A stretch of 27,048 bases of DNA from Gemmatimonadota bacterium (GCA_046758745.1 JBHIAV010000039.1:1-27048); one strand, 5' to 3'; positions 152-19,079 are shown, counted from the first letter of the stretch. Made by a program: numbers and translations. Notes: generated from the letters alone by a model not told the origin.

Positions 152-901
152 TCAGGGCGCGCGGCCCCGCCTGTCGCGCGCTCTCGACGGGGGGCCGCTC
201 CCCGGAGGGACCGGGGGACCGGCCGGGGCTTGCGCGCCGCGCGTGCGTCGCCGCGGCTGTGCGTCGCGCGCCGGAGGGGTCACGCCCCGGTCCGTGAGGC
301 CACGGCGCACCGCGTCGGCCGCCCGACCCGGGGGCTCACCGAGCTGGATGCGGCGGCGAACCTCCGCGGAGTAACCCAGCAGGCGCTCTCCCCCTTCTCC
401 GCGCTGCAGGGCCCACGTGACCACTTCGAGGGCGTGGTCGACGGGGACGTGCGCCGCCGCCAGCTCACCGAGGACCAGTACCGCGATCGCGATGTCGCCC
501 GGGTTTTCCCGCGCGACGAAACGGATGGCGTCGGGGGAAGCGCCGCGTCGGATGGCATCGGCCGTCACGGCGAGCGTGGCCGCCTCCCGCCCGGGACCCA
601 GCAGCGCACGGGCCTCGCGCAGGCGGTCGGCGTATTCGTCGAGGACCGGCAGGATCCGCTCCGCGGGAACGCCCTTCGCGGCGCCTTCGAGAGCCTTTCG
701 GTAGACGAGCTCCGAGGGTACGCCGTCCCGCTCCGCATCCGCCGCGATGTGCTCCACCCGGGAGGCCGGCAGCCGGGGCAGGACGGAGCGAACGCGCTCC
801 AGGAGCGGCTCCTGAGCGGCGAGCGCCGGGAGCGGCAACAGGAGGGCCACAACGAGGGCCCGCAGAACCAACCTGACTCTATTCAAGGCGCGAATCGTCA
901 T
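152..901 (-). CDS. Secreted alpha-helical hypothetical protein (signal peptide, repeated G-[VA]-[PS] helix-turn units, Pro/Arg-rich tail)
   Basis: ORF 152..928, with the ATG at 901 preferred (MTIRALNRVRLVLRALVVALLLPLPALAA|QEP, a Sec signal). Recurrent DGVPSELV/KGVPAERI/RGASPDAI/AHVPVDHA segments. Start is uncertain (GTG 928 is the alternative). Confidence 0.7.
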   Translation of the reverse strand: MTIRALNRVRLVLRALVVALLLPLPALAAQEPLLERVRSVLPRLPASRVEHIAADAERDGVPSELVYRKALEGAAKGVPAERILPVLDEYADRLREARALLGPGREAATLAVTADAIRRGASPDAIRFVARENPGDIAIAVLVLGELAAAHVPVDHALEVVTWALQRGEGGERLLGYSAEVRRRIQLGEPPGRAADAVRRGLTDRGVTPPARDAQPRRRTRGAQAPAGPPVPPGSGPPSRARDRRGRAP

Positions 902-978
902 GTGAAAAAAGTACAGTCGCCTCCTCACGCTGCGCGAGGCGCTCCGAAACGGGGCCGAACACGCCTCATCAACCCGTA

Positions 979-1004
979 GACGAATCCGGGGTGAAAAAAG
1001 TCAC
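979..1004 (-). promoter_or_regulatory. Putative ECF sigma promoter GTGAC-N17-CGTC (copy 1)
   Basis: Minus strand cGTGACttttttcaccccggatTCGTCta, upstream of the 152..901 gene. Same spacing as the copies at 3483 and 4768. Confidence 0.65.
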
Positions 1005-2155
1005 GGTCCCGGCGGGACCACCAGCGTGGCGCTTCTTCTCCCCCACTCGTCCTCCACCGAGCGCTCGGACCCCGGCGGGACGAACCATTGCCCATCGACC
1101 AGGAACCCGAACCGGTAGACGCCGGGGGCGACCGGTACGGTGACGGTCCATCGTCCGTCTCCCTCCTCCCTCATCGGGACGGGCTTCCAATCGGAGAAAT
1201 CTCCCAGCACTTGGGCGTCTCGCGCGCCCTGCCGCCGAAGCTCGAACCGCACGGCCGCGTGGCCGGCACCGACCAGGGTGTACAGCGGCTTCGGCCCCGC
1301 AGTGAAGCGGAGAGCCCGCCAGCCGAGCAGGGCGGCCGTGCTCACCCCCGCGGGGGCCTCGAGGAGGGGGTCGGGTCCGAACCGCCCGCCGGACAGCTGA
1401 CCCTCCCAGGAGCGACCGATCGGGAAGCGCAGGGCGGCGGTCGCCACCAGCTCGCCCCCCTCGGGAGTGTCCCAGCCCCGAAGCTCCACGACCCAGTCGA
1501 CGCCTCTCACCGAACCGTGAGCGCCGGCGAAGATGGAGGCGTACTCGCTCTCCCGCGCCGCGCGGAACCCCTCGGCGCCGGCCCTAAGGACCGCCGAGCC
1601 GAGCTCGTGAAGGAGCTCGAGACCGCCGCCGTAGCTCCACAGGTCGGAGGTGACGGCCGGCTCGCTCTCAGCGCGGGAAGAGCCGACGCGCGACCGACCG
1701 ATCCCGCCGGCGCCGTACAGCCGTGCCGTCGTGCCGCCGAACCTGTGGCGGAGCTCCGGCTCCGCCCGGACCACCGCGGCCCGGTAGGGCAGAGCGCCTC
1801 CCACCGTGAACGCCTCGCCGACCACCCCGAGGCCGAGGTGAGTGCCGCCCCCGACGGGGAAGAGTCCACCCAACCCGGCCTCCAGGGACGCCCAGTCGCC
1901 GGAGTCGCGGCGCAGGGCGACCCCCCCGTGGAGCGCACCGAACAGCCAGGCGCTCGAGGAGAGAGCCGGCTCCACCCGCACCCCCCCCACGAGATAGGAG
2001 GATGACCCGCCCGGCGCTCCGGCGGGAGGCAGGGCGTGCGCGGCACCGATGTCCACGGTGAGATGACCACTCTGTGCCGATGCGGGTCGTGCCGCGAGAA
2101 GGATAAAGAGCAGCGCCCAGCCTGAACCTGGTGCTTTCGATGGCGGCCGGGTCAC
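1001..2155 (-). CDS. Predicted outer-membrane beta-barrel protein with C-terminal AMPK-beta/CBM48-like glycogen-binding domain
   Basis: Signal peptide (WALLFILLAARPASA|Q) followed by about 260 aa of alternating amphipathic Gly/aromatic strands. C-terminus VRFELRRQGARDAQVLGDFSDWKPVPM...DGRWTVTVPVAPGVYRFGFLVDGQW matches the CBM48/AMPK1_CBM pattern (GDF.DW, W, PG.Y.Y.F.VDG.W). Confidence 0.75.
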   Translation of the reverse strand: MTRPPSKAPGSGWALLFILLAARPASAQSGHLTVDIGAAHALPPAGAPGGSSSYLVGGVRVEPALSSSAWLFGALHGGVALRRDSGDWASLEAGLGGLFPVGGGTHLGLGVVGEAFTVGGALPYRAAVVRAEPELRHRFGGTTARLYGAGGIGRSRVGSSRAESEPAVTSDLWSYGGGLELLHELGSAVLRAGAEGFRAARESEYASIFAGAHGSVRGVDWVVELRGWDTPEGGELVATAALRFPIGRSWEGQLSGGRFGPDPLLEAPAGVSTAALLGWRALRFTAGPKPLYTLVGAGHAAVRFELRRQGARDAQVLGDFSDWKPVPMREEGDGRWTVTVPVAPGVYRFGFLVDGQWFVPPGSERSVEDEWGRRSATLVVPPGP

Positions 2156-2275
2156 TCCAGAGATGAAAACCTCCGGCTTACCGGTGCGGCGTCCGCCGCC
2201 GGTCGAAGCTATCGCTGCGAGACGCTGTTTATCGCTGTGAGGCGATCGACCCGCCAGGGTCGAGGTCGCGGGACA

Positions 2276-2908
2276 TTAGGTTCCGCTTGGGGGCGTCGCA
2301 ACGGCGAGAACGGCGTTCCGGTTGCCGAAGCCGTCGTCCGAGTACCTCTCGGCGTGAGGATCGGTGACCCAGGTAGAGCCGTCCAGAACGAACATGTACT
2401 GGTGGACTCCCGGGGCGAGCCGCGCGCGACCCGACCACACTCCGTCTCCATCGGCGTCGTCGAGGCGGATGGTCGGCTTCCAGCCGCTGAAGTCCCCCGC
2501 CACCGCTACCGTGCGGGCCGACGGTGCCTCGACGAGGAACTGCACGTAGACCACCGGCTCGGCCTCCCCGTTCCCGGCTCCGGCGAGGTCGGCCTGCGAC
2601 GGCCCGCCGCTCCACGGGCGGATGGCGACCAGCAGCAGTAGGCCGAGCACCGCGGCCGCCGCGAGCGGCGATACCCGGATGGCCCGCGGCCGCACCAGCC
2701 AGGCCAGCCAGGCGGGATGGTGCGACGCCGCCGAGGTGCGGAGATCCCGCATGACGCCGGCCTGAAGCCACGCCGGAGCCTCGGCAGGGGCCTGGTCGGC
2801 GATATCCGCCAGGAAGGCCTCCCATCGCTCCGCCTCGGCTCGCAGCTCGGGGGGTAGGCCCTCCCGGCCCAGCTCGCCATCCAGATAGGCGTGCAGCTCT
2901 TCTCTCAT
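2276..2908 (-). CDS. Membrane anti-sigma factor with extracytoplasmic AMPK-beta/CBM48-like glycogen-binding domain
   Basis: ATG at 2908 overlaps the sigma stop (ATGA). N-terminus MREELHAYLDGEL is an anti-sigma-domain start without HxxxCxxC. One TM helix (PLAAAAVLGLLLLVAI), then VQFLVEAPSARTVAVAGDFSGWKP...DGDGVWSGRARLAPGVHQYMFVLDGSTWVTDP...DDGFGNRNAVL. Confidence 0.85.
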   Translation of the reverse strand: MREELHAYLDGELGREGLPPELRAEAERWEAFLADIADQAPAEAPAWLQAGVMRDLRTSAASHHPAWLAWLVRPRAIRVSPLAAAAVLGLLLLVAIRPWSGGPSQADLAGAGNGEAEPVVYVQFLVEAPSARTVAVAGDFSGWKPTIRLDDADGDGVWSGRARLAPGVHQYMFVLDGSTWVTDPHAERYSDDGFGNRNAVLAVATPPSGT

Positions 2909-3420
2909 CGATACGCCTCGAGCAGCTTCCGCAGCTCCTCGCGCGCCCGGTGCACCCGCATCTTCAGAGCGGGGATCGACGCGCCGAGCAGCTCCGACAT
3001 CTCCTCGTATGAGCACCCTTCGACGTGCTTCAAGACGAACGCCTCCCTCTGCTCCACAGGCAGCGACAGTAGGGCCCGACCGATCAGGATGGCCAGCTCC
3101 CTCCGCTCGAGCGTCGATGCGGGCTGTCCGAGATCGCTCACCGGCTCCGGGACCTCCTCCAGCCCCACGTCACGACGCCGCCGGCTCTTCAGATAATCTT
3201 TGCAGGCGTTCGCGGCGATCCGGAAGAGCCAGGCCCCGACCCGTTCCGGGCTGCGACACAGCCGCAGGCTCCGGTACCCCTTGACGAGCGCCGCCTGCAC
3301 GATATCGGCCGCATCGTCGGGCCGTCCCGTCATCCGCTCGACGTAGCGGTAAAGCAAGTCCTGGTAGCGACGTACGAGGATCCCGTACGCCTCCACCTCT
3401 CCGCCGAGAACCGCGCGCAC
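2905..3420 (-). CDS. ECF-family RNA polymerase sigma factor (ECF-1)
   Basis: Region 2 (LVRRYQDLLYRY...DAADIVQ...AWLFRIAANACKDYLK) and region 4 (LPVEQREAFVLKHVEGCSYEEMSELLGASIPALKMRVHRAREEL). The start may lie further upstream. Confidence 0.93.
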   Translation of the reverse strand: MRAVLGGEVEAYGILVRRYQDLLYRYVERMTGRPDDAADIVQAALVKGYRSLRLCRSPERVGAWLFRIAANACKDYLKSRRRRDVGLEEVPEPVSDLGQPASTLERRELAILIGRALLSLPVEQREAFVLKHVEGCSYEEMSELLGASIPALKMRVHRAREELRKLLEAYR

Positions 3421-3482
3421 GACCTCGACGTCCTCCCGCCGGGCACCCGGCGGCTGGCGATCGACCGAGTCCTGTATAATGG

Positions 3483-3509
3483 GACGACTCCCCGCGGTCG
3501 AAGGTCACA
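3483..3509 (-). promoter_or_regulatory. Putative autoregulatory ECF promoter TGTGAC-N17-CGTC (copy 2)
   Basis: Minus strand TGTGACcttcgaccgcggggagTCGTCcc, directly upstream of the ECF-1 gene. Confidence 0.7.
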
Positions 3510-3537
3510 GGAAGACTACCGTCGCGGGACCTCCGTA

Positions 3538-3576
3538 CAAGAAACGCGCCGGAACCCCGCGGGGGAGGCTCCGGCG
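3538..3576 (-). terminator. Probable rho-independent terminator downstream of the DUF4382-like gene
   Basis: Minus-strand RNA CGCCGGAGCCUC-loop-GGGGUUCCGGCG forms a 12-bp stem whose two G.U pairs are valid only on this strand. It is followed by CGUUUCUUGU. Confidence 0.55.
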
Positions 3577-3711
3577 GAACGGTGCGCCCTCCGGCCATCG
3601 AACCCGGATCGAGGGATTCCGGCGCGCCACCCCCGACGGAGGGCCGGCTTCCCCTTAAGATCGGAGGCGCCGTTCGTCAACCTCCTCACGATCGGGGGGC
3701 TGCTCACGTCG

Positions 3712-4683
3712 TCAACCTCCGGCCGTCACGCAAGCTGCGCCGCCGATCACGTAATCCGCCATCGCGACGCCGTCGGACGTCACCTCGACCGTTCCCGGCG
3801 TCACCCCCACGTCGGAGAACGAGACGCTGTCGCCGTTCCCGAGCTCGATCGCGGAGGCGTGCCCCATCTCCCAGGAGCCGGGGGGCACGAAGAGAATCCG
3901 GTAGCTGCCGTCACCGTCGGTGGTGCCGGACTTCACCAGCTCACCGGAGGTCGCGCGCGGGAGGAAGAGCGACAGCAGGTCGGCCTCGGCCAGGTCCCCT
4001 CCTCCGCAGGAGAGCGGGAAGGAGACGAGAGGCGCTCCGCCCGCGTCCGTACCGATCGACACGGTGCCGAGGATCGATCCGGTCACGGTGAACTCGCTCG
4101 CCTGCATCACCGGGTGCATCACCCACATGCCGGACTTGCCCGCCTGGCGGCCGTAGCTCTGGCTCACGTCGAAGTCCACCACGACGATCTGCTGACCGCT
4201 CTCCAGTGTGATCGAGCCTCCGGGGAGATTCACCTTGAGCCCGCTCTGCGCGCAGCTCGGGCACTTGAGGGTGCCGGCCCACGTGCCGGTGGCCTCCTCC
4301 AGCTCCTCCATCGAGACACCCTCCGACGCGTAGATCTGGCCGCCCACCTGGAGGGCGCCCCTCCCGATGACGAAGCGGAGCTGCGTGTACGTCCCCGCCG
4401 GGATCTCCAGCCCCTCGACGATCGGCTCGCTTCCGCCGCTCGCCAGCTGGGTCATCTCGATCAGCCCGGTCGGCGCATCCAGAAGAGTGATCGTGCCGCC
4501 GCTCCCCTGCAGGGTGATCTCGCTCACCTCTACCCAGGCGTATTCGATGTCGCCCGGGTCGTCGGTGAGGAGGACGGTGAGCCGCGTAGTGCCCTGCGTG
4601 CCCGTCGGCCCGTCGCCGCACGCGACCACGCTCACGGCCAGAAGGGACGACGCGAGGATGGTGCGTAGATGATAGCGCTGCAT
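3712..4683 (-). CDS. DUF4382-like lipoprotein
   Basis: Lipobox VVAC. The segments LTVLLTDDP...AWVEVSEI, IPAGTYTQLRF, LKCPSCAQSGLKV, VVDFDVSQS and WVMHPV match the DUF4382 pattern, followed by a C-terminal beta-sandwich (G.Y.I.FVPPG.W). GGAGG SD upstream. Confidence 0.8.
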   Translation of the reverse strand: MQRYHLRTILASSLLAVSVVACGDGPTGTQGTTRLTVLLTDDPGDIEYAWVEVSEITLQGSGGTITLLDAPTGLIEMTQLASGGSEPIVEGLEIPAGTYTQLRFVIGRGALQVGGQIYASEGVSMEELEEATGTWAGTLKCPSCAQSGLKVNLPGGSITLESGQQIVVVDFDVSQSYGRQAGKSGMWVMHPVMQASEFTVTGSILGTVSIGTDAGGAPLVSFPLSCGGGDLAEADLLSLFLPRATSGELVKSGTTDGDGSYRILFVPPGSWEMGHASAIELGNGDSVSFSDVGVTPGTVEVTSDGVAMADYVIGGAACVTAGG

Positions 4684-4767
4684 GATGCCTCCCCCTCCAC
4701 TTGTGCTTCACACGAACGCCGACGGCTCTGGACTCCCCCGAGCCGGTTGACGAGCCTCACAGAGAAG

Positions 4768-4794
4768 GACGAGCGGGTGGGATCCAGCGTCACA
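4768..4794 (-). promoter_or_regulatory. Putative ECF promoter TGTGAC-N17-CGTC (copy 3)
   Basis: Minus strand TGTGACgctggatcccacccgcTCGTCct, about 85 nt upstream of the DUF4382-like ATG. Confidence 0.65.
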
Positions 4795-4842: not shown

Positions 4843-6894
4843 TCACGGGAACGGCGCTCCGCCGCCCGGGATCACGTGAAGCGCGCTCCGGCGCAGGGAG
4901 ATCCGCCATCGCTTCTCCCGCGCGATCCCGAGCGACTCGTACGAGCGGACTGGGAGCTCGATCTCCAGAACCAGCAGGGAGTTATCCTCCCGGGTGTCGA
5001 CGAGGAAATGCAGCGTGTAACTGGCACCCCGGAGGCGCTCCGCGGCGACCCGACCGGCCAGCACGTTCTCGTCGGCGGGCGGCCGCACAGGCTGCCCGTG
5101 CTTCAGGATCACCACGTCCTCGGGACGCACGCACACGAAGGCCCGCCGCCCCGGTTGGAGCGTCCGGACGCCCGGGGGGGCCTCCACCTCGACGCCTCCC
5201 TCGAGCCTCAGTACGGGTCCGTCCGGGCCGGAACTCGTCACCTCCGCGGGTAGGAGGTTCCGCACGCCGACGAAGCGGGCCACGTCGTACGTCGCGGGGT
5301 GACGGATGACGTCGAGCGGCTTGCCCACCTGCTCGATCCGCCCGCTGGAGAGCACGGCCAGGCGGTCGCCGAGCGAGCAGGCGTCCCGCAGGTCATGCGT
5401 CACGTAGATCACGCACAGGCCGTACGCCTCCCGGATGCGGGTGACGTCTCCATGCAGCCGTTCTCTCATGTTCTGATCGAGCGAGGAGAAGGGCTCGTCG
5501 AGGAGGAGGACGCGCGGTCGGCGGATGAGCGCCCGGGCGAGCGCCACCCGTTGCTGCTGGCCTCCCGAGAGCTCGGCGGGATAGCGCGCCTCGAGGCCCT
5601 CGAGCCGCGTGAGGGCGAGAAGCTCCCGAGCCCGGGCCTCTCCCCCGTCGGACGGGGCGGCGAAGAGGATGTTCTCGCGCACCGTGAGGTGCGGAAAAAG
5701 GGCGTGCGCCTGGAAGACCATCCCCACCGGCCGGAGGTGCGGCGGAACCCACACGGCGCCGGTAGGACCGTCAGCGAAGGCCGGTCTCCCAACCAGCACG
5801 AGGCGGCCGGAGTCCGGGCGGGCGAGGCCCGCCAGCAGGCGGAGGAGCGTGCTCTTCCCCGCACCGGACGGGCCGAACAGGGAGAGCACCTCCTCCCCCG
5901 CTCGGAGCTCGACGTCCAGCTCGAACGCGCCGAGCCGGTACCGGAGCTCCGCCTCCACGAGCGGCCGTGCCGCGGTGGCGCGCCGCGGGCCACCGTGCGA
6001 GCCGGCCAGCTCGAGCGGCCCCACCCCCCGGGCGGGCCCCCGCTCCTGCGCCGGCCCCCGGAGCACACCGGAGCGCCCCGGGCGGACGAGAGCAGGCCCC
6101 CGGCGCATGAGGAGTTGCGCCACCCCGAGGGCACCGAGGGCGAGGAGGAGCGCGAGGAGCGCCACGGGGAGAGCGGCCCGCAGGCCGCGCCCGGTCAGCT
6201 CCAGCCACAGGTAAACCGGGAGGGTGTGAGGGTGATAGGCGAGAACGACGGTGGCGCCGAACTCGCCGATCGCCCGCATCCAGGCGAGGGCGAGCCCGGC
6301 CAGGACGCCGTGCCGCGCGAGGGGCAGGGCCACGCGGCGAAACGTCTCCCCTCGCGTGCGGCCGAGCGTCGCTGCGGCCGCTTCGAGGAGAGGATCCACG
6401 GAGCGGAAGGCAGCCTCGGAGGTGAGAACGACGAAGGGAGCCGCGACGAAGAGTTGCGCGAGCACGATCCCCCCGAAGGCGTTGATGAGGGTCCAACCGG
6501 ATCCCTCCAGCAGGCGGCCCACCACCCCGGCTGGTCCGAACACGTTGAGGAGCAGCACACCCGCCGCGACGGGAGGGAGCACGGTGGGGAGGAGAACGAG
6601 GACGCGCGCCAACCATCCCCACCGCGATTCGCTGCGGGCCAGGAGATAACCGCTCGGGATCCCCAGCAGGGCCATGATCGACGTCGCGAGGGTGGCGCTG
6701 GCCAGGGAGATGCCGACCGCCCGGCCGAGCCCGCCCCGCCGCAGCTGACCGGCGAGCTCCCCCGCCGAGACCTCCGGCAGGAGGAGCGCGAGCGGAAGGA
6801 GGAAGAGGACGAGGAGTAGCGCCGCGAAGACGAGAAAAAGCCCCCGGGCCGTGATCCAGCCTCCTTCACCATACGTTCTCGCGCGTCTGCTCAT
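4843..6894 (-). CDS. Fused molybdate/tungstate ABC permease + ATPase + TOBE (ModBC/WtpBC-like)
   Basis: N-half is ModB-like (LPTVLPPVAAG, AQLFVAAPF, LEAAAATLG, RAIGEFGAT). C-half has Walker A GPSGAGKST, VGMVFQAHALFPHLTV, LSGGQQQRVALARAL, LLLDEPFSSLD, YVTHD and a TOBE-like tail. Start at ATG 6894 (6921 is the alternative). Confidence 0.88.
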   Translation of the reverse strand: MSRRARTYGEGGWITARGLFLVFAALLLVLFLLPLALLLPEVSAGELAGQLRRGGLGRAVGISLASATLATSIMALLGIPSGYLLARSESRWGWLARVLVLLPTVLPPVAAGVLLLNVFGPAGVVGRLLEGSGWTLINAFGGIVLAQLFVAAPFVVLTSEAAFRSVDPLLEAAAATLGRTRGETFRRVALPLARHGVLAGLALAWMRAIGEFGATVVLAYHPHTLPVYLWLELTGRGLRAALPVALLALLLALGALGVAQLLMRRGPALVRPGRSGVLRGPAQERGPARGVGPLELAGSHGGPRRATAARPLVEAELRYRLGAFELDVELRAGEEVLSLFGPSGAGKSTLLRLLAGLARPDSGRLVLVGRPAFADGPTGAVWVPPHLRPVGMVFQAHALFPHLTVRENILFAAPSDGGEARARELLALTRLEGLEARYPAELSGGQQQRVALARALIRRPRVLLLDEPFSSLDQNMRERLHGDVTRIREAYGLCVIYVTHDLRDACSLGDRLAVLSSGRIEQVGKPLDVIRHPATYDVARFVGVRNLLPAEVTSSGPDGPVLRLEGGVEVEAPPGVRTLQPGRRAFVCVRPEDVVILKHGQPVRPPADENVLAGRVAAERLRGASYTLHFLVDTREDNSLLVLEIELPVRSYESLGIAREKRWRISLRRSALHVIPGGGAPFP

Positions 6895-6948
6895 CGATTC
6901 GCTCCGAGTGGACGATGCCACTCCGGGAGACGGCCAGCCAGCGCCGTC

Positions 6949-8849: not shown

Positions 8850-10535
8850 TTAGCGGGCGATCTCCCCGAGGCGACGCACCGCGGCTCGGAACGGGAGGAC
8901 GGTCACCAGCGCGCACACGCCCAGCGTGATTGCGAGGGCCGCCGCGACCTCGGCTGCCAGGGGATCCCGCGCCACCCGCCCTGGTAGCCCGCTGACCAGA
9001 TAGCCCCGCAGCGCCCACAGCTGCCCACCCACCACGGCCGCCAGCGTAGCGAGCGCTCCAAGCATGAAGAGCAGGCCGCCCACCGAAGTGGGGATCTGCG
9101 CGGCGTTCTCCATCTCGAACTCCGGGTACGCGGAGCCCCACGCGAGCGCCTGGCCCGTGAACGCAAAGCTCAGCCCCACGACGGACGCGACGGAGAGCAC
9201 CAACATACCGGGCCGGACGCCGAGCAGAACGTCTGTCACAGCCGTGAGGACGAAGGCGAGCAGGGCAAGCGGGACGACGCCGACCCAGAACTTGGAGCGC
9301 AGGATCGTCGCTGCCTCGGTCGGCGACGAGCGCAGCAGCCACAGCGTGCGTCCTTCCAGGCTGATCGCGGGGAACACGAAGCGCGCCGCCACGGCGGCGA
9401 GCACGAAGCCGGTAAGGGCGAGGTTGAGGAAGCCCACCAGGGCGACCAGGTAGCGCCCGATGGCCTCGCTGGACCGGACCGGCAGGACGTGGATGTTGTA
9501 CACGTACACCACGATGAGAACCGCGAGGATGATGAGCTGCGACCACTGCGTCGTGTCGCGGAAGAAGAGCCGCACGTCCTTGAGCATCAGCTCCCGGAGC
9601 TCCATGCGGAGCGGCGCCCCCAGCCTCTCGAGCGCCCGCCACCCGAGGGTCCGAACGAGTCGGTTCTCCGCCCCTTCCTGTGCCCTGGTGAAGCACACCG
9701 GAAAGAGCCGGCCGTGAAGCGCCGCCCCCAACACGACGACGCCGCCCGCCGTGCTCCACAACAGGAGGAGAAAGAAGGGGTCGAGCCCGCCCTGCAGGAA
9801 ACCGGAGAGGGAGTCGGCGGCCCACTGTGAGGGAAGCCAGGGCGACGAAGGGCCGCGCAGGACGGCGAGGAAATCCACCAGGTTACGGAACTCCTCCGGG
9901 CGAACCAGCCGCTCGGGACGGATCACGCGCAGTCCGAGGACCAGAAAGGCCGCCGCCGCGAGCGTGACGAGCCCCAGCAGGTCGCGGGTCCGCCGGGCCG
10001 GGAAGACGCGAACGAGAAGGAGCGTGCTCGCGCTTCCTACCGCGGCGGGAATCACCAGGAACGGGGCGATCGCGATCGCCGCCAAGCCGTAGAACACAGG
10101 GCCGCCGCCGTACACCTGCTCGTACGCCGCCAAGATCGGTGCGAGCATCAGCAGCACCATCCACGACGAGCTCACCACGGTCTCCGTGAGCCTCGCCAGG
10201 TAGACGGCCAGCCAGTCGACGGGCGCCGCGATGATGGCCGGCAGGTCGCGGGAGAGGAAGAAGCTCGAAAGGGCCGCGATCAGATTCGATAGAAGGAGGA
10301 TGCCGAGGAAGACGAGAAAGCCGAGGGCGAGAAGCTTCGACGCCAGGAGCGGTCCCACGTCGGGAACGTGACGCAGGTTTCGCAGGAAACGGAAGATCGC
10401 CAGATAGATGAGGGACCAGGCGGCGGCCCCCACCGCGAGGAGAAGGAGCATGCGCAGCGCACGGCGTTCCCCCGCCGAGCCGCGTCGGAGGACGGAACGC
10501 GCCTTGGGCCCGAGGAGGAGGAGAAGCTTGCCCAC
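8850..10535 (-). CDS. ABC-2-type exporter permease (multi-TM, two internal halves)
   Basis: About 14 hydrophobic segments, LSSFFLSRDLP, KDVRLFFRDTTQWSQ, FVFPAISLEGRTLWLLRSSP. GTG 10535 follows the ATPase stop. Confidence 0.85.
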   Translation of the reverse strand: MGKLLLLLGPKARSVLRRGSAGERRALRMLLLLAVGAAAWSLIYLAIFRFLRNLRHVPDVGPLLASKLLALGFLVFLGILLLSNLIAALSSFFLSRDLPAIIAAPVDWLAVYLARLTETVVSSSWMVLLMLAPILAAYEQVYGGGPVFYGLAAIAIAPFLVIPAAVGSASTLLLVRVFPARRTRDLLGLVTLAAAAFLVLGLRVIRPERLVRPEEFRNLVDFLAVLRGPSSPWLPSQWAADSLSGFLQGGLDPFFLLLLWSTAGGVVVLGAALHGRLFPVCFTRAQEGAENRLVRTLGWRALERLGAPLRMELRELMLKDVRLFFRDTTQWSQLIILAVLIVVYVYNIHVLPVRSSEAIGRYLVALVGFLNLALTGFVLAAVAARFVFPAISLEGRTLWLLRSSPTEAATILRSKFWVGVVPLALLAFVLTAVTDVLLGVRPGMLVLSVASVVGLSFAFTGQALAWGSAYPEFEMENAAQIPTSVGGLLFMLGALATLAAVVGGQLWALRGYLVSGLPGRVARDPLAAEVAAALAITLGVCALVTVLPFRAAVRRLGEIAR

Positions 10536-10536
10536 C

Positions 10537-11295
10537 TCAGCCGCGGAGCACGCGGGCGATCTCCCAGTCTGTCGCTCCACGAGTGATCCTCAGGAACAGC
10601 TCCTCGAGGTCGGCCCCGTCCGCCGCCGCGATCCTGCGCAGGTCCGCGAGCGTTCCGGATGCCACGACCCGACCGCGATCGATCACCGCCATCCGATCGC
10701 ACAGGATCTCGGCCAGCTCCAGCGTGTGGGTGGAGATGAGCGCGGTCCCGCCGCGATCGGCGAACGAGCGCAGAAGGTCTTTGAGCAGCCGCGCCGACCG
10801 CGGGTCGAGCCCCACCATCGGCTCATCTATCACGAGGATCCGCGGCTGGTGGACCAGCGCAGAGGAGATGATCAGCTTCTGCCGCATCCCGTGGCTGTAC
10901 GATTCCACGAGCTGGTCCTTCCACCCGTCGAGCTCCCACAGACGAAGCAGCTCATCGATACGCGACTCGACCTCCGGTCCCGACTGACCGTACAGCCCCG
11001 CCGCGAAGCGGAGCAGCTCGCCGCCCGTCAGCTTGTCATATACGAAAGGGCGGTCGGGCACGAAGCCGATCTGTCTCTTGGCCGCGGTCGGGGAGAGGAT
11101 CACATCGTGTCCCCCGATCAGCACCCGCCCCCCGTCGGGACGCAAGATGCCGGCGATCATCCGGAGGGTGGTCGTCTTGCCGGCCCCGTTCGGCCCGAGC
11201 AGGCCGTAGATCTGGCCCGGACCCACTTCGAGGTCCAGCGAGTCGACCGCGGTGAACGAGCCGTACCGCTTCGTGATGCGCTCGAGCAGAATCAC
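10537..11295 (-). CDS. ABC transporter ATP-binding protein (exporter type)
   Basis: GPNGAGKTT, YSHGMRQK, VIDEPMVGLDP, STH. Confidence 0.95.
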   Translation of the reverse strand: MILLERITKRYGSFTAVDSLDLEVGPGQIYGLLGPNGAGKTTTLRMIAGILRPDGGRVLIGGHDVILSPTAAKRQIGFVPDRPFVYDKLTGGELLRFAAGLYGQSGPEVESRIDELLRLWELDGWKDQLVESYSHGMRQKLIISSALVHQPRILVIDEPMVGLDPRSARLLKDLLRSFADRGGTALISTHTLELAEILCDRMAVIDRGRVVASGTLADLRRIAAADGADLEELFLRITRGATDWEIARVLRG

Positions 11296-12257
11296 CGGCC
11301 GGGAGATCTGTTCGATCCTCGTTCCCCCTCCGCAGGAGCTTCATCCACCGTCCCTCCGCTACGCCGATCCCCCTCTCCCTCCCTCTCTCGCGTCGCTGGA
11401 TCCGGCGCGCGTCCGACGCTCTCAGCGGGAGCCGGCGGCTCTCCGGCTCGATGGAAAAAGGCCAGCTCGAACGCGGTGCGCTCCAATCTCAGAGCACCCG
11501 CCTCGCCGCTGAGAAGGCGTCCGTCCTCGTCGACCCACGTGTCGAGCCGCAGGCCGGCCACCTCCTGCTCCACTCGCCACGCCGAGACGGTGTCCTCCCC
11601 GGCGACGTACCAGCGCCTGGACAGGGAATCGAGGTCCGCGCTGTCCGGGTAGGCACGTGGCGCCCGCTCCACGATATGGAGCCGGATCCGACGCACGCTG
11701 ACCGAGGCCGGATCGAACAGGAGCACCTCGTACCGGTCGCCGGGCTCCGCCACGCCCTGCGCCGCGAGCCGGAGCGGCCACACGTTCGCCAGCGACACAC
11801 CTCCACGGACGGAAAGACGGAGAGATTCGGCGCTACCGTCTCGCTCCACGCTCACGTCGAGGACCGAGTCGCCTTCCACCACCCCTTTGAGGGAGCGGCG
11901 CTCCCGGTCGGTAACCGTCTCATGAGTGAAGGAACGGAGCGCGAGGTCGGGATCCAGCACGGCCTCCGCGCGCACCTCGGTGCGGCCGACCGGCCCGAGA
12001 CCCGGAAGCTGGATGTCCAATCTCTCGCGCACCACGAAGCCGGCCCCGGCGGGCAGGGTATCCATCTCCCTCTGCCCCCAGCCGGCCCGGCTCCGTCCAC
12101 GGAAGAGCGAGTAGTATGCCACTCCCGGGGGGAGGGTGCGTGCCGCCTCGGCGAGACGCTCGGCAGCCGGCCTGTAGTACTCCCGCCTCACGTGCCAGCC
12201 GAGCACGGCGACCCACACGACCACGATGGCGACGCCGATGAGCCTTCGCCCACGCAT
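11292..12257 (-). CDS. Membrane-anchored hypothetical protein resembling the N-terminal beta-rich part of transglutaminase-domain proteins, with no catalytic domain
   Basis: N-terminal TM helix (LIGVAIVVVWVAVLGWHV), beta-rich body ending WVDEDGRLL...LERTAFELAF, low-complexity tail and no Cys. GTGA overlap with the ATPase gene. The family resemblance is from recall only. Confidence 0.6.
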   Translation of the reverse strand: MRGRRLIGVAIVVVWVAVLGWHVRREYYRPAAERLAEAARTLPPGVAYYSLFRGRSRAGWGQREMDTLPAGAGFVVRERLDIQLPGLGPVGRTEVRAEAVLDPDLALRSFTHETVTDRERRSLKGVVEGDSVLDVSVERDGSAESLRLSVRGGVSLANVWPLRLAAQGVAEPGDRYEVLLFDPASVSVRRIRLHIVERAPRAYPDSADLDSLSRRWYVAGEDTVSAWRVEQEVAGLRLDTWVDEDGRLLSGEAGALRLERTAFELAFFHRAGEPPAPAESVGRAPDPATREREGEGDRRSGGTVDEAPAEGERGSNRSPGR

Positions 12258-12312
12258 GCCCTCGCAAATAGCGGATCAGGATGGGCTCCGCAACGCCGCT
12301 CGTGGCGACCGA

Positions 12313-13320
12313 TCACCGGCCGCGGTTCGTCGCGGCGACGGCCTCCCGCAACGCCGGCGGCGTCCGTTCAGCGTCCCCGATGAGATGAGCGACCGAAGGA
12401 AACCCCGCTTCCTCGAGCCGCTCCCTGCCGGCCGGCTCCAGCAAGAAGGCGAGGAGCGCCCGGCCCCCCACCGGATCGGGCGCATTCAAAGGGATCGTGG
12501 CCACGTACAGGATCGGTGTGCCCCGAGCCGCGGCGCCGCTCGGCGTCTCGAATCGGCGCCGGCCGTACAGCCCGGCCAGAGCGGGCGAGCCCTGATGGAC
12601 CTCCGGCGGCAGGCGGATCATTCGGAGGCCGTGCGCGAGGCCTTCGGCGAGATAGAACGCTCCGGCGTCCAGCGCACCCGCCTGGACGCGCGCCGGGAGG
12701 TGTGGCTCCGGGTACACCAGGCCGCTTCCCTCCCACCCCTCCAGGAGGCGGCGGGCCAACCCGCGGATCCCGTATCGCTCCTCCGCCAACTCGAACATCC
12801 ACACGGTACGGTAGCCCTTGGGATCCAGTGCGGGGTCCGTGCGGCCGAAGCGAAAGCCGGGGCGACCGAGCACCTCGTACCACGGGAGAAGACCCGCCGC
12901 CGCGCTATCGAGCCCGGCGGCGAAGCGACTCCGCGGGCCGTAGCCGATCGCCATCTCGCCGCCGGCGAACGCGATCGCCCACCCCGGATCGTACTCACCG
13001 AGCAGCGGCAGCGTGGCGGGGTCCGCGCTGATGTAGAGGTCCGGCCGCCGTACACCCTCCCGAATCTGATGCGCCGCGGCCACCGAGCCGTGCGGCTCTC
13101 CGCGAAGCACGCGTCCCGTGACCGTCTCGAAGGCGGGAGCGATCGCGCTCTCCATCGTAGCCGTCAGCGAGCCGGCGTACAGCACATCGACGGGATCCCC
13201 CGGGGCATCGGCCGCCCGGCAAGCGGCCAGCGACACCAGCAGAGCAAAGAGCGGGAGCGGTGGCGCGTGGCGGCGGGCCATCCCGCCCGCCGGAAACAGC
13301 GGGGAGCGGAGGCGGTTCAC
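12313..13320 (-). CDS. WtpA-like tungstate/molybdate ABC substrate-binding lipoprotein
   Basis: Lipobox LAAC. LYAGSL, GSVAAAHQI, PDLYISAD, WYEVL...FGRTDPALDPKGYR, E...LDAGAFY and PILYVATIP are typical of the WtpA class. Confidence 0.82.
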   Translation of the reverse strand: MNRLRSPLFPAGGMARRHAPPLPLFALLVSLAACRAADAPGDPVDVLYAGSLTATMESAIAPAFETVTGRVLRGEPHGSVAAAHQIREGVRRPDLYISADPATLPLLGEYDPGWAIAFAGGEMAIGYGPRSRFAAGLDSAAAGLLPWYEVLGRPGFRFGRTDPALDPKGYRTVWMFELAEERYGIRGLARRLLEGWEGSGLVYPEPHLPARVQAGALDAGAFYLAEGLAHGLRMIRLPPEVHQGSPALAGLYGRRRFETPSGAAARGTPILYVATIPLNAPDPVGGRALLAFLLEPAGRERLEEAGFPSVAHLIGDAERTPPALREAVAATNRGR

Positions 13321-14012
13321 CGCCTCAGCCGCGCGAGCGCCGCGGCGTGGTCCGCCGGCGTGTCGATGTCCACCGGCGCGTAGAGGTCGAGCCCGACCTC
13401 GCCCACGGACATGTCGGAGAGACCCGGCCCCTCGAGACCACCGGAAGCCGCCCGCAGGCCACCCTCGCCCCGCAGTGCGGTGAGGCGCGAAAAGAGCGAC
13501 CGGTCGAACAGAACCGGGTGACCCGGGCGGTCACGGTAACGTACCCGCACGGCCGGTGGCCCACCCTCCCTCCACACGGCCACCACGGCGCGAATCGCCT
13601 CGAGAGGCACACCGGGCTCGTCGGCCAGCAGAACGGCCGCCGCACCGACCTCGGGCCTTCGTCTGACGGCCGCGATCCCGGCTGCGAGCGAGCTCCCCTG
13701 TCCCTGCGCATACGCCGGGTTCGTCACCACCTCCACCCGTCTTCCCACCAGGGCCTCGCACACCGCCGGCGCTTCGTGCCCCACCACCGTCACGACCGGG
13801 TAGAGTCCCGCCTTCTCCGCGGTCCGCGCCACCGCGCCGATCACGGTGACATCGCCGTACGGGAGGAGTAGCTTGTGCGCGTTTCCCATCCGGGTGGACC
13901 GACCGGCCGCCAGGATCACCGCGGCGACGGAGACGGTGCCCCTCCCGGGATGCGCTGCATCCGAAGCGGCGGCTCTCCCGGCCCTCTCCCCGGCGTCCTT
14001 CTTCCGGTTCAC
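13317..14012 (-). CDS. mocA: Molybdenum cofactor cytidylyltransferase (MocA-like NTP transferase)
   Basis: ILAAGRSTRMG.AHKLLL, NPAYAQGQGSSL, LLADEP, GHPVLF, DIDTPAD. Lies next to xdhC and a xanthine-oxidase-family enzyme. Confidence 0.82.
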   Translation of the reverse strand: MNRKKDAGERAGRAAASDAAHPGRGTVSVAAVILAAGRSTRMGNAHKLLLPYGDVTVIGAVARTAEKAGLYPVVTVVGHEAPAVCEALVGRRVEVVTNPAYAQGQGSSLAAGIAAVRRRPEVGAAAVLLADEPGVPLEAIRAVVAVWREGGPPAVRVRYRDRPGHPVLFDRSLFSRLTALRGEGGLRAASGGLEGPGLSDMSVGEVGLDLYAPVDIDTPADHAAALARLRR

Positions 14013-14021
14013 CTCCCCCGC

Positions 14022-15074
14022 TCACCGCTTTCCGTGGCGGACCGCGAGGATCTCGCCGAGGATGGAGAGCGCGATCTCCTCGGGGGCGCGGGCTCCGATG
14101 TCGAGGCCGACAGGGCCGTGGATACGGTCCACATCGGACTCGCCGAACCCCAGCTCGGCGAGCGCCTCGCGTCGCAGCCGCTGCGTTCGCCCGCCGCCGA
14201 TCTGCCCGACGTACAGGCAGCCGGCTCGGAGCGCGGCGGCGAGCGCCGGAACATCGAGCTTCCGGTCGTGGGCGAGCACCACGACGTTCAGGTATCGATC
14301 GAGCCCTGCCCGCTCGAGCCCCTCCTCCGGCCAGGAGCGGACTACCTCCGTCGCGTCGGGGAATCGGTCGTGGCGGGCAAACGCCTCGCGCGGATCGATG
14401 ACGACGACGGAGAACCCCAGGTAGGTCGCGAGGTGGCAGAGAGCGGCGGCCACCGGTGTCGCCCCGACGATCGCCAGACGCGGAGGCGGGAGGAAGGCCT
14501 CCACGAACAGCTCGACCGCTTCGGCGGGCGACGGCATGGGGAGCTCCAGGATGCGGGTCTCCCCGGTGTCGAACAGGGAGGCGGTCGCCTCGGCGGCCTC
14601 CCTGTCCAGCATCGCGTCGCCGAGCGTTCCGAAGCTCCGGCCGTCGAGACGCACCAGCATCCGCCGCCCCCTGACCCGCTCCGACAGCCCGGTGACCATC
14701 ACGGCCGCCTCACCGGCCTCCACCACGCGGCCGACCTCGAGCCACGCCACGTCGTGCGGGTCGTGCGGCGACACGAGGACGTCGATCTCCCCTCCGCACG
14801 CCAGTCCCACTTCGGCGGCCATCTCGTCCGTGATGCCGTAGTGGAGGAGGCGCGGTGTGCCGTCCGCCAGCACCTGCTGGATGTGCTCGTGCAGGTCGCC
14901 CTCCACGCAGCCGCTCGAGACCGAGCCGGCGAGCTCGCCCCGCTCGCTGGCCGCGAAGCGGGCGCCCGGCGCCCGCGGAGCGGAGCGCCGAACCCGCACC
15001 AGCGTGGCGACGCCGCTCCGCGCCCCGGCGGCGCTCCATTCCTCGAGAGAGTCCCAGATCTCGGCAACGCTCAT
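14022..15074 (-). CDS. xdhC: XdhC/CoxI family molybdenum cofactor chaperone
   Basis: SAPRAPGA, GSVSSGCVE, VGLACGGEIDV, VVIDPREAFA, AHDRKLD, IHGPVGLDIGARAPEEIALSILGEI. Confidence 0.93.
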   Translation of the reverse strand: MSVAEIWDSLEEWSAAGARSGVATLVRVRRSAPRAPGARFAASERGELAGSVSSGCVEGDLHEHIQQVLADGTPRLLHYGITDEMAAEVGLACGGEIDVLVSPHDPHDVAWLEVGRVVEAGEAAVMVTGLSERVRGRRMLVRLDGRSFGTLGDAMLDREAAEATASLFDTGETRILELPMPSPAEAVELFVEAFLPPPRLAIVGATPVAAALCHLATYLGFSVVVIDPREAFARHDRFPDATEVVRSWPEEGLERAGLDRYLNVVVLAHDRKLDVPALAAALRAGCLYVGQIGGGRTQRLRREALAELGFGESDVDRIHGPVGLDIGARAPEEIALSILGEILAVRHGKR

Positions 15075-15170
15075 CGGTGCCCTTCACGCGGTTGGCCGCG
15101 GCTCGCACGCGGCATCCTGGATCGGTCCGTCGACCCGCTCCCGCACCGCGAAGCTTCGGCAGTTCTTCGC

Positions 15171-15199
15171 TTGTACCCCCCAACGACGCCGTTTAGCTT
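15171..15199 (+). promoter_or_regulatory. Sigma70-type promoter of the coxSLM-like operon
   Basis: TTGTAC-N17-TAGCTT. AGGAGG SD precedes ATG 15295. Confidence 0.6.
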
Positions 15200-15294
15200 A
15201 GTTGTCTCTCGAACCGACCGCCAAGACGCGCTCCACCTGCCGGCCGACCGGACCGTGGAGGGCAAGCCCTGCGGGCCCGCCTCAGGAGGAACGA

Positions 15295-15798
15295 ATGAAG
15301 CATGCCGTAACCGTCACGGTGAACGGCCGGTCCTATGAGCGTGAAGTCGAGAGCCGTCTCCTCCTCGTGCAATTCCTTCGAGATCTCCTCGGGCTTACCG
15401 GGACGCACGTGGGGTGCGAGACGAGCCTGTGCGGGGCGTGCACGGTTCACCTGAACGGGCACGCGGTGAAGTCCTGCACCATGCTCGCCGTGCAGGCGGA
15501 CCGGGCGGAGATCACCACCATCGAGGGGCTCGCCGCGACGTGGAAGGGGAAAGGCGATGCGGAAGGCGGTGACGGGGCGCTCCACCCGCTGCAGAGGGCC
15601 TTCTGGGAGGATCACGGGCTGCAGTGCGGATTCTGCACCCCCGGGATGATCATGGCCGCGGCGGAGCTCCTCGCCCGGAACCCGGATCCGAGCGAGGCCG
15701 AGATCCGCGACGGTCTGGAAGGCAACCTCTGCCGATGCACCGGCTATCACAACATCGTCAGGGCGGTGCGGCGTGCGGGCGCCGAGATGGGGGGGTGA
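15295..15798 (+). CDS. coxS: 2Fe-2S small subunit of xanthine-oxidase-family hydroxylase (CoxS/CutS-like)
   Basis: [12 protein letters not shown]...[28 protein letters not shown]. Confidence 0.93.
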
Positions 15799-15799
15799 G

Positions 15800-18133: not shown

Positions 18134-18227
18134 CGCGGGGTGAGGTGAAAGGTGAGGAGTGGATTCGAGCGATCCCGTGACGCCGCGCGAACGAGGAAGG
18201 CCTCCACCCGGCCCTGTATGAGGAGGC

Positions 18228-19079
18228 ATGATGCACCCGGCTGACTTCGATTACCTCGCCCCTTCCTCCCTGGATGAGGCGATCGATCTGCTCGCGGCGC
18301 ACCCGGACGCGAGGGTGCTGGCCGGCGGCCAGAGCCTGATCCCGATCCTCAAGCTGCGGCTCGGAGGAGCCGGCACCCTCGTGGACCTGCGACGGCTGGA
18401 CGACCTCCGTTACGTGAGGGAGACGAACGGGGGGGTCGAGATCGGCGCTCTCACCACCTATCGAGAGGTGGCGAGCTCCCCGCTGCTTCGTGATGGCGCC
18501 CGGGCGCTCGCGGAGGCGGCCGCCGCGGTCGGGGACATGCAGGTGCGAAACCGGGGCACCTTCGGCGGGGGGCTCGCACATGCGGATCCGGCGGCCGACG
18601 TGCCGGCGGCGGCCGTCGCGCTCGGGTGCACGATGATAGCGCGTGGCCGCTCCGGCTCCCGCGAGATTCCGGTCGCCGAGTTCTTCCGGGGCGTGTGGGC
18701 CACCGCGCTCGAGCCCGGCGAGATCCTCACCGCCGTACGGGTACCGATCGCCTCGGGCTCGAAGGGCGCGTACGAGAAGCTCGTGCAGAAGGCCTCGGGG
18801 TTCGCCCTGGTGGGCGCGGCGGCCGTCCTCGAGATGGATGGGGAGACGTGCCGGTCGGCGACCGTCGCCCTCACGGGCGTGGGGATGGGCCCGGTCCGTC
18901 TCGGCGGCCTCGGTTCGCTGGCCGGGGCTGCACTGGACCCAGCCGCCGTGGAGAGCGCGTGCGAGGCGGGCGCCGCGGCGCTCGATGGCGTCCAGTCCGA
19001 CCTTCACGCCTCGCACGAGTATCGTCGCGCCATGGCCGCCGTCGTGGCGCGGCGCGCGATCCTCCGGGCGGCGGGGTAG
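18228..19079 (+). CDS. coxM: FAD-binding medium subunit (CoxM/CutM-like)
   Basis: FDYLAP, LAGGQSLIP.LKLR, VRNRGTFGGGLAHADPAAD, EILTAV. GAGGAGG SD. Confidence 0.92.
   Translation: MMHPADFDYLAPSSLDEAIDLLAAHPDARVLAGGQSLIPILKLRLGGAGTLVDLRRLDDLRYVRETNGGVEIGALTTYREVASSPLLRDGARALAEAAAAVGDMQVRNRGTFGGGLAHADPAADVPAAAVALGCTMIARGRSGSREIPVAEFFRGVWATALEPGEILTAVRVPIASGSKGAYEKLVQKASGFALVGAAAVLEMDGETCRSATVALTGVGMGPVRLGGLGSLAGAALDPAAVESACEAGAAALDGVQSDLHASHEYRRAMAAVVARRAILRAAG

Follow-up and report, generated by a model that had tools for sequence, protein, structure and literature searches.

Pairs of extracytoplasmic function (ECF) sigma factors and anti-sigma factors constitute a major bacterial signaling route, and the signal being sensed is obscure for most groups. 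In the RpoE-RseA-RseB and SigW-RsiW systems, an ECF sigma factor is coupled to a single-pass anti-sigma factor (RseA and RsiW, both controlled by proteolysis), accompanied by a downstream periplasmic protein and an autoregulatory ECF promoter. FecI-FecR-FecA and the Bacteroidota ECF/SusC-like systems encode an ECF sigma factor, an inner-membrane anti-sigma factor, and an outer-membrane barrel together. A membrane anti-sigma factor using an extracytoplasmic carbohydrate-binding module (CBM) as sensor is described in the accessible text of two reports on RsgI/SigI of Clostridium thermocellum (PMC10328401, PMC6852018). Here, we analyzed a 27,048-nucleotide stretch of DNA from a Gemmatimonadota bacterium (GCA_046758745.1 JBHIAV010000039.1:1-27048; the whole stretch is referred to as the window). 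Its minus strand carries a five-gene cluster coding for a DUF4382 lipoprotein, an ECF sigma factor, a predicted anti-sigma factor with a CBM48/AMPK-beta-type domain, a predicted outer-membrane barrel protein ending in a second domain of this type (barrel-CBM protein), and a secreted helical-repeat protein (Table 1). With a probability of about 0.75, we read this cluster as an envelope module in which an ECF/anti-sigma pair regulates its own expression and a CBM48-type domain serves as periplasmic sensor.

Comparison with described systems

The module shares its gene anatomy with RpoE-RseA-RseB and SigW-RsiW, but a CBM48/AMPK-beta-type beta-sandwich takes the place of the extracytoplasmic domain of RseA and RsiW, the downstream protein is a helical repeat without a PDB relative, and a barrel-CBM gene is added to the operon. 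The use of a CBM as anti-sigma sensor would be common to the module and to RsgI/SigI as far as the latter is covered by the reports cited above. SigI, however, is not an ECF sigma factor and belongs to a Gram-positive envelope, a different anti-sigma N-terminal domain, and a cellulosomal regulon, whereas the present module involves two membranes and no linked enzymes. Pfam searches gave no RsgI_N match in the cluster proteins or in the anti-sigma family, and the partner here is an ECF sigma factor.

Although the FecIRA and SusC-like systems likewise combine sigma factor, anti-sigma factor, and barrel, we do not assign the module to either type, because their defining parts were sought and not found: Plug, TonB_dep_Rec, STN, and FecR were absent from the five cluster proteins (E <= 0.1) and from 19 neighboring open reading frames (ORFs; E <= 1e-5), the barrel has 14 instead of 22 strands, and it is dispensable in a sister genus (g2, see below). 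Pfam detected no glycoside hydrolase, TonB-dependent receptor, or FecR in the five cluster ORFs or the 19 further window ORFs, in agreement with an earlier note on this DNA, made from the sequence alone, which had stated that the parts of classical cell-surface signaling are missing. A linkage of an ECF sigma factor to an outer-membrane protein built from a barrel and a periplasmic domain is also seen in SigX-CfrX-CmpX-OprF (ECF102) and OmpA/OprF, as far as described in the available text of PMC7826278; the module differs by 14 instead of 8 strands, by a CBM48-type instead of an OmpA-C-like domain, and by having no mechanosensitive channel.

The same note named no experimental characterization of such a system, and full-text searches returned no paper in which AMPK1_CBM, CBM48, or a glycogen-binding domain is linked to anti-sigma factors in a comparable way. 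Terms for glycogen, AMPK, or CBM do not occur in the main text of the paper re-classifying the ECF sigma factors (PMC7826278), while its supplements may catalogue the group.

The sigma factor and its predicted anti-sigma factor

The sigma factor comprises sigma-2 and sigma-4 domains only (Pfam Sigma70_r2, E 8.9e-18; Sigma70_r4_2, E 2.2e-15) and scored 102 bits against TIGR02937 (sigma70-ECF; cut-off 42.9). This two-domain content and the small size of 171 amino acids are those of ECF (group IV) sigma-70 factors. None of the NCBIfam equivalogs scored above its cut-off, with SigM being the best (110.7 versus 190 bits). The TGA stop codon (2907-2905) overlaps the ATG (2908-2906) of the following gene in an ATGA arrangement, confirming the translational coupling that had been noticed before. 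In the encoded protein, the single hydrophobic stretch is followed by a linker of ~20 residues and one AMPK1_CBM domain (residues 131-205; 43.1 bits versus a cut-off of 26.8), and the N-terminus carries a conserved LxAYLDGEL...W pattern.

For comparative analysis, one genome per species was scanned, and the best 80 of 97 encoding stretches were kept. All of these related loci are metagenome-assembled genome records, 78 of them titled as Gemmatimonadota lineages or Candidatus genera and two as "uncultured bacterium." The CBM-carrying protein is encoded directly after the sigma factor in 68 of the 72 assessable loci, with a gap of at most 4 nucleotides (nt) in 46 of these 68. Co-transcription, a position downstream of the sigma gene, and a single membrane helix are features of class I anti-sigma factors. 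A profile of the first 90 residues, built from 32 genomes, was compared with 177,635 PDB sequences and returned the anti-sigma domains of RsiW (E 0.014) and RseA (E 0.11) as the top two of seven matches at E <= 10. Mainly on the basis of gene context, the product of 2276-2908 is predicted to be an anti-sigma factor. It scored 27.9 bits against NF052375 (cut-off 100), and an hhalign comparison of its family with a zf-HC2 anti-sigma factor encoded elsewhere in the window (24233-24778) gave an uninformative probability of 0.2.

The database names of the homologues are "glycoside hydrolase family 13," "glycogen-binding domain-containing protein," and similar CBM48/AMPK labels, with "anti-sigma" not occurring as a name among the best 120 of 1199 matches; the assignment proposed here would correct these names. 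Two homologues, in loci L026 (at about 5875) and L068 (at about 5860), contain one in-frame stop each. The L026 stop occupies a position being Trp in close relatives, for which an assembly error, a pseudogene, or another cause is possible, and the two stops do not form a consistent recoding pattern.

The two CBM48-type domains

The barrel protein matches the same family (AMPK1_CBM at residues 308-374; 37.5 bits versus 26.8), so that the assignment of both domains made in the earlier note holds in the profile searches, as does that of the DUF4382 gene. The own genome (3.08 Mb, 87% complete) contains no further AMPK1_CBM match, and the two domains are paralogues sharing 38% identity over 100 residues (E 4e-18). 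Within the anti-sigma family, all 30 examined homologues match both AMPK1_CBM and CBM_48. When a profile of the anti-sigma CBM was compared with the PDB, the solved relatives were all alpha-glucan proteins, the best one being the type II pullulanase 5ot1 (E 5.8e-9), followed by AMPK beta-2, AMPK beta-1, SIP2, and GlgB. A C-terminal DP-A-Y-DG(F/Y)G-NAV stretch is common to 5ot1 and the anti-sigma CBM.

Residues W100, K126, W133, and N150 are reported as critical for carbohydrate binding by AMPK-beta1 in the available text of PMC4032982. In HMMER alignments, the places of W100, W133, and N150 are taken by W143, W180, and N198 of the anti-sigma factor, all three being invariant in 30 homologues. 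The 30 homologues examined from the barrel family likewise keep W323 and W357 without exception, while the asparagine place is mostly N and is S in the protein studied here. Because the three equivalents are invariant in the anti-sigma family, glycan binding by the anti-sigma CBM is plausible; in line with this, starch binding is reported for a plant beta subunit keeping the two Trp only (PMC4032982, same available text). The module resembles AMPK-beta/SIP2 and the CBM48 domains of GH13 pullulanases and branching enzymes by AMPK1_CBM scores above threshold and by the W100/W133/N150 equivalents. In contrast to these proteins, its domains are predicted to be periplasmic and are attached to an anti-sigma factor or a barrel, the K126 equivalent is lost, a catalytic or kinase partner is missing, and a DxDGDG loop is added in the anti-sigma copy.

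This conserved loop (residues 151-156), which does not occur in the barrel copy, resembles the DxDxDG calcium-binding motif. It is degenerate (DPYGTG) in two of three g2 loci.

Comparison of the evolutionary rates within the 30 of 80 loci passing coverage filters gave mean distances of 0.47 for the anti-sigma CBM, 0.62 for the sigma factor, 0.71 for the barrel CBM, 0.95 for the helical protein, 1.05 for the anti-sigma N-terminus, and 1.45 for the barrel. The lowest of these values, and hence the slowest evolution, is that of the anti-sigma CBM, which fits a constant, non-protein ligand. Mirror-tree partial correlations given the sigma factor amounted to 0.45 (anti-sigma CBM and barrel CBM), 0.38 (anti-sigma CBM and helical protein), and 0.44 (barrel CBM and helical protein); they do not discriminate between partners, and only the rate ranking was used.

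Promoter motif and predicted autoregulation

ECF promoters have a two-block form with a CGTC -10 element. The pattern GTGAC-N16-18-CGTC matched three times in the window, each time on the minus strand and ending 51-85 nt 5' of the helical gene, the sigma gene, and the lipoprotein gene, respectively. Against an expectation of 1.84 matches, three in the window are no significant excess, but their placement is significant. Within the 80 related loci (894,861 nt), 113 matches were found on the gene strand, compared with 37 on the opposite strand and 7-8 in backward controls. A spacing of 17 was seen in 96 of the 113, and flanking positions not included in the search were strongly biased among these 96: GTGAC was preceded by T in 52 and followed by C in 60, while CGTC was preceded by T in 83 and followed by T in 68. 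The consensus is TGTGACC-N15-TCGTCT. A total of 72 of the 113 matches lie 5' of the sigma (28), helical (32), or DUF4382 lipoprotein gene (12), with two more being found 5' of the barrel gene and 39 elsewhere. The motif that the earlier note had seen before the flanking genes is hence real and reproduced in position across the 80 loci, and it precedes the sigma operon, too. We read the consensus as the sigma factor's own promoter, from which autoregulation is predicted.

Many of the 39 matches located elsewhere stand ~1.2 kb 5' of the sigma gene in Longimicrobiales loci, before a different helical lipoprotein. This protein of 352 amino acids is unrelated to DUF4382, which it replaces (L026 3819-4953 and about 15 other loci), and Pfam gave a sub-threshold DUF1771 match only.

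Examination of the regions 5' of the sigma gene in 71 genomes showed TGTGAC to be enriched, with TATGTT being found in another clade. In this second clade (loci L037-L079 and others), TGTGAC..CGTC is not present before the sigma gene, and a conserved cCTATGTTc is located a few bases before the ATG. It looks like a housekeeping-like -10 element, probably giving rise to a leaderless or near-leaderless transcript.

Exact copies of the motif numbered 15 in the own genome versus five in the control, and 2-7 in each of five relatives versus 0-1. The ORFs behind the extra copies code for response regulators, lipoproteins of unknown type, a protein resembling pilins, and a small helix-turn-helix protein of the Fis type, and are not claimed as a regulon. 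The best extra copy in the own genome (G000:C22:37507-37533, plus strand, corresponding to L083 1008-1034) lies 47 nt 5' of the gene of an NtrC-type sigma-54 response regulator, which is followed by a histidine kinase gene (ORFs L083 1085-2698 and 2703-3776), together representing a candidate regulatory target.

Conservation and invariant core

The gene order sigma factor, anti-sigma factor, barrel-CBM protein, and helical protein is kept in about 70 Gemmatimonadota loci, which bears out the conservation on which the earlier note had made its proposal depend. Considering assessable loci only, the counts are 71 of 72 for the sigma factor, 68 of 72 for the anti-sigma factor, and 74 of 75 for the helical protein, while the DUF4382 lipoprotein is variable (15 of 65). 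Clustering of the flanking ORFs of all 80 loci revealed no other family in more than eight loci, except for opposite-strand shadow ORFs over the cluster genes. In eight loci (e.g., L004 4786-5868) and in g2 (L102, L103), the gene located downstream of the helical gene encodes a FabH-like ketoacyl synthase, possibly by chance.

Genus g2, belonging to the same family, encodes sigma factor, anti-sigma-CBM, and helical protein back to back without any barrel gene in three single-contig genomes (loci L102-L104 from genomes G058, G082, and G212), the helical ORF beginning directly after the anti-sigma stop codon. A barrel-domain query found no match in five single-contig g2 genomes of 94-98% completeness (including G196 and G241), which is not proof of absence, and a profile search agrees by giving one CBM match per g2 genome. 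As g2 keeps the other three genes without the barrel, the barrel is regarded as accessory. The invariant core of the module is formed by sigma factor, anti-sigma-CBM, and helical protein, judged by gene content, with the barrel-CBM protein and the lipoprotein as accessories. Accordingly, the description of the helical protein as a mere flank of the module has to be revised. On the phylum level, the barrel-CBM profile matched 193 of 301 genomes (including the four unpublished genomes G057, G097, G157, and G182) at E <= 1e-10, mostly through its CBM part, so that this number is not a count of barrel proteins.

The outer-membrane barrel and the helical protein

The AlphaFold2 model of the barrel-CBM protein (pLDDT 90.0, pTM 0.76; 30-sequence alignment) consists of a signal-peptide helix, 14 strands (residues 28-286), a 5-residue linker, and a beta-sandwich (residues 292-380). 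Foldseek comparison of the barrel model with the PDB yielded 226 matches at E <= 0.001, the best one being the 14-strand porin OmpG (2wvp, 2f1c; template modeling score by target 0.55-0.58). The 45 rows listed from the top 50 are all outer-membrane barrels or designed metalloproteins ranking among OmpF porins. The model combines a signal peptide, an even-numbered closed antiparallel barrel, and short periplasmic turns, as is typical for outer-membrane barrels, while the barrel part matched no family in Pfam or NCBIfam.

In outer-membrane barrels, an even strand number places the C-terminus on the periplasmic side. Given an even number of strands and a barrel beginning directly after the predicted cleavage site ASA/Q, the C-terminal CBM should be periplasmic, and the alternation of connections in the model (2-5 versus 2-10 residues) agrees with this topology. 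The architecture already described for this locus, an anti-sigma factor with one membrane helix and an extracytoplasmic CBM next to an outer-membrane barrel ending in a second CBM, agrees with these predictions. Invariant residues of the barrel family (HxxPP, WDTP, PDPLL) cluster at the presumed outer strand ends. All organism-named members among the 91 relatives of the barrel-CBM protein at E <= 0.001 are from Gemmatimonadota. The public protein record of the 1001-2155 gene comprises 351 amino acids and is 33 residues shorter than the full ORF, so that it would lack the signal peptide carried by full-length homologues. The longer GTG start at 2155 fits better with the family alignment.

The helical protein was modeled with 11 helices including the signal peptide (pLDDT 87), arranged as a ten-helix stack (residues 33-213) followed by a disordered tail. 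A signal peptide occurs in all homologues listed, and the tail displays a conserved GPPVPPGSxPP motif in most lineages, being Cys-rich instead in g2. An alternative ATG start lies 27 nt downstream of the GTG at 928. Pfam assigned no family (sub-threshold HAAS match only), Foldseek against the PDB gave nothing at E <= 0.001 with designed helical repeats as best rows, and the ESM Atlas returned unnamed Gemmatimonadota clusters only. Judged by these models, the barrel and the helical protein would represent a newly defined 14-strand outer-membrane protein family and a newly defined family of periplasmic helical-repeat proteins, both in Gemmatimonadota, where few envelope systems have been studied.

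Proposed mechanism and alternative readings

In the proposed mechanism, an RseA/RsiW-like anti-sigma factor would use its short cytoplasmic domain to retain the sigma factor at the inner membrane, while the periplasmic CBM48/AMPK-beta-type domain would act as sensor by binding a periplasmic or envelope glycan. The candidate ligand is an alpha-glucan-like chain, as suggested by residue conservation, or possibly a cell-wall glycan. A change in occupancy would open the anti-sigma factor to regulated proteolysis, and the sigma factor thereby freed would direct transcription from TGTGACC-N15-TCGTCT promoters of its own operon, the helical gene, and the lipoprotein gene. Induced by the sigma factor, the barrel-CBM protein would add another binding site just beneath the outer membrane, serving as sink, presenter, or tether and not as obligatory partner, and the helical protein may be the main effector or an RseB-like modulator. 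For this entire chain, i.e., a Gemmatimonadota-specific, self-regulating ECF/anti-sigma envelope module with a glycan-type sensor and proteolytic release, we would put the chances slightly below even.

Several observations weigh against this interpretation. In the anti-sigma family, no more than 10 of 30 homologues matched zf-HC2, and these did so at permissive E values up to 1 (best 0.02), and the RsiW and RseA matches of the N-terminus point in the right direction, yet are marginal. CBM_48 scores are borderline, with 22.6 bits for the anti-sigma factor and 22.1-22.6 bits for the two CBMs versus a cut-off of 22.4. Neither domain has Lys at the K126 place, which is occupied by an invariant Met (M172) in the anti-sigma factor and by G350 in the barrel protein, and the invariance of the Trp residues could in part have structural reasons. 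No glycoside hydrolase or sugar transporter is conserved near the module in the 80 loci, and no carbohydrate genes were found behind the motif copies in the own genome or five relatives; a linkage to alpha-glucan enzymes or transporters is missing in these searches. We know of no periplasmic alpha-glucan in Gemmatimonadota. Finally, autoregulation is not universal, since the second clade has no ECF motif before its sigma gene. Of the alpha-glucan sensing postulated in the earlier note, glycan binding remains plausible by the W/W/N residues, while a tie to alpha-glucan use was not found.

The signal might also be a protein. The CBM-like fold would then be a beta-sandwich for protein binding, to which the helical protein would attach as RseB/MucB does to RseA/MucA, possibly via its GPPVPPGSxPP tail, thereby controlling proteolysis, with no role being left for a glycan. 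Such a function would suit the membership of the helical gene in the invariant trio (74 of 75 loci) and its position directly after the anti-sigma gene in g2, which recalls rseB, together with the signal peptide and the conserved proline-rich tail of the homologues listed. We nevertheless regard this as unlikely: the helical protein shows double the evolutionary rate of the domain it would bind (0.95 versus 0.47), the tail differs in g2, and the invariant CBM residues correspond to sugar contacts in AMPK-beta. The own sigma-dependent promoter of the helical gene in most loci suits an output as well as a regulator.

Alternatively, the barrel-CBM protein may be an OmpA/OprF/OmpM-like anchor on a cell-wall glycan, with the anti-sigma CBM monitoring the same polymer, so that the module would report damage to the cell wall or outer membrane. 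The succession of barrel and periplasmic C-terminal domain parallels OmpA/OprF, all predicted targets belong to the envelope (an outer-membrane protein, a periplasmic protein, and lipoproteins), and the linkage of ECF102 SigX to the porin OprF, described in the available text of PMC7826278, counts in favor of this idea. It appears improbable to us, however, as the nearest solved relatives of the CBM are all alpha-glucan proteins and the barrel is missing in g2. To our knowledge, no CBM48 member binding peptidoglycan has been described.

In the earlier note, a direct or glucan-bridged contact of the two CBMs across the periplasm had been put forward as the controlling signal. The CBMs are paralogous, both predicted to be periplasmic, co-transcribed, and co-conserved in about 70 loci, and their partial distance correlation of 0.45 points in the same direction, but is not above that of other pairs. 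As g2 keeps the other three genes with no barrel gene found, the contact cannot be obligatory, which weakens the two-membrane mechanism. Moreover, the short linkers (~20 residues after the helix, ~5 after the barrel) would make direct contact hard across a periplasm of typical width. A complex prediction of the mature barrel-CBM protein (residues 28-384) with anti-sigma residues 100-210, based on a 30-row alignment per partner, scored 0.00 in both runs without controls and was used neither for nor against this mechanism, which we judge to be quite improbable. A related reading, in which the two paralogous CBMs, one per membrane, would read a glycan spanning the periplasm, the sigma factor thereby reporting envelope geometry or glycan integrity and barrel-less lineages using a reduced one-ended version, strikes us as similarly doubtful. 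Nutrient sensing, with imported starch or maltodextrin turning on alpha-glucan catabolism and the barrel as uptake porin, would parallel the control of cellulosome genes by RsgI/SigI or of glycan loci by the Bacteroidota ECF/anti-sigma/SusC-like systems. It is very unlikely despite the existence of CBM-sensor anti-sigma factors (RsgI) and the resemblance of the barrel to OmpG: no GH13 enzyme, sugar transporter, or other catabolic gene was found in the window, conserved in the 80 loci, or behind motif copies in the own genome or five relatives.

Within the favored reading of an autoregulated module with a CBM48-type sensor, the sensor comes from a domain family whose class of ligands is well understood, and no other part of this phylum-wide module is as conserved. 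The signal is thus directly accessible to binding assays in combination with a sigma/promoter reporter, for which the promoter consensus and a small predicted regulon are already available.

Feature coordinates and genomic neighborhood

The cluster is organized in three predicted transcription units separated by terminator-like hairpins (Table 1), with 120 nt between the anti-sigma and the barrel gene. The GTGAC of the helical-gene promoter includes the stop codon of the barrel gene.

Table 1. Features of the five-gene cluster and their positions in the window.
Feature	Positions	Strand	Basis
ECF-type promoter of the lipoprotein gene, TGTGAC-N17-CGTC	4768..4794	-	Motif match; also 5' of DUF4382 genes in 12 related loci
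DUF4382 lipoprotein, 323 amino acids	3712..4683	-	Pfam DUF4382, E 3.2e-20; VVAC lipobox-like N-terminus
Terminator-like hairpin after the lipoprotein gene	3547..3576	-	12-bp stem and T-rich tail
ECF-type promoter of the sigma/anti-sigma/barrel operon, TGTGACC..TCGTCC	3483..3509	-	Motif; 5' of the sigma gene in 28 related loci
ECF sigma factor, 171 amino acids	2905..3420	-	Sigma70_r2, Sigma70_r4_2, TIGR02937
Predicted anti-sigma factor, 210 amino acids	2276..2908	-	ATGA overlap, AMPK1_CBM, N-terminal profile matches, synteny
Predicted anti-sigma membrane helix, residues 79-96	2621-2674	-	Single hydrophobic stretch
Predicted periplasmic CBM48/AMPK1_CBM domain of the anti-sigma factor, residues about 117-205	2294-2560	-	
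Predicted outer-membrane barrel-CBM protein, 384 amino acids, signal peptide residues 1-27	1001..2155	-	AlphaFold2, Foldseek, AMPK1_CBM
14-strand barrel, residues 28-286 of the barrel-CBM protein	1298-2074	-	
CBM48-type domain of the barrel protein, about residues 292-380, predicted periplasmic	1016-1282	-	
Terminator-like hairpin with T6 where the barrel gene ends, abutting the -35 element of the next promoter	1003..1021	-	
ECF-type promoter of the helical gene	979..1004	-	Motif; equivalent position filled in 32 related loci
Secreted helical-repeat protein, 258 amino acids	152..928	-	Family alignment, AlphaFold2 pLDDT 87; start GTG at 928

The G+C content of the window is 69-75%, and the contig ends 151 nt beyond the helical gene. 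The remaining window comprises genes for a molybdate-type ATP-binding cassette (ABC) transporter and the molybdenum cofactor, a xanthine-dehydrogenase-family enzyme, and two further ECF sigma factors. A fused ABC permease-ATPase of 692 amino acids (4843-6921, minus strand) adjoins the module, and the region 8850-19079 encodes an SBP_bac_11 solute-binding protein, MobA-like and XdhC proteins, and the three-subunit xanthine-dehydrogenase-family enzyme. Judged by its gene content, this group looks like a molybdate-uptake and molybdoenzyme cluster. The other ECF sigma factors of the window (24233-25349, minus strand; 25588-26187, plus strand) are unrelated to the CBM module, one of them being followed by a zf-HC2 anti-sigma factor (E 1.7e-9) with an overlap of 8 nt.

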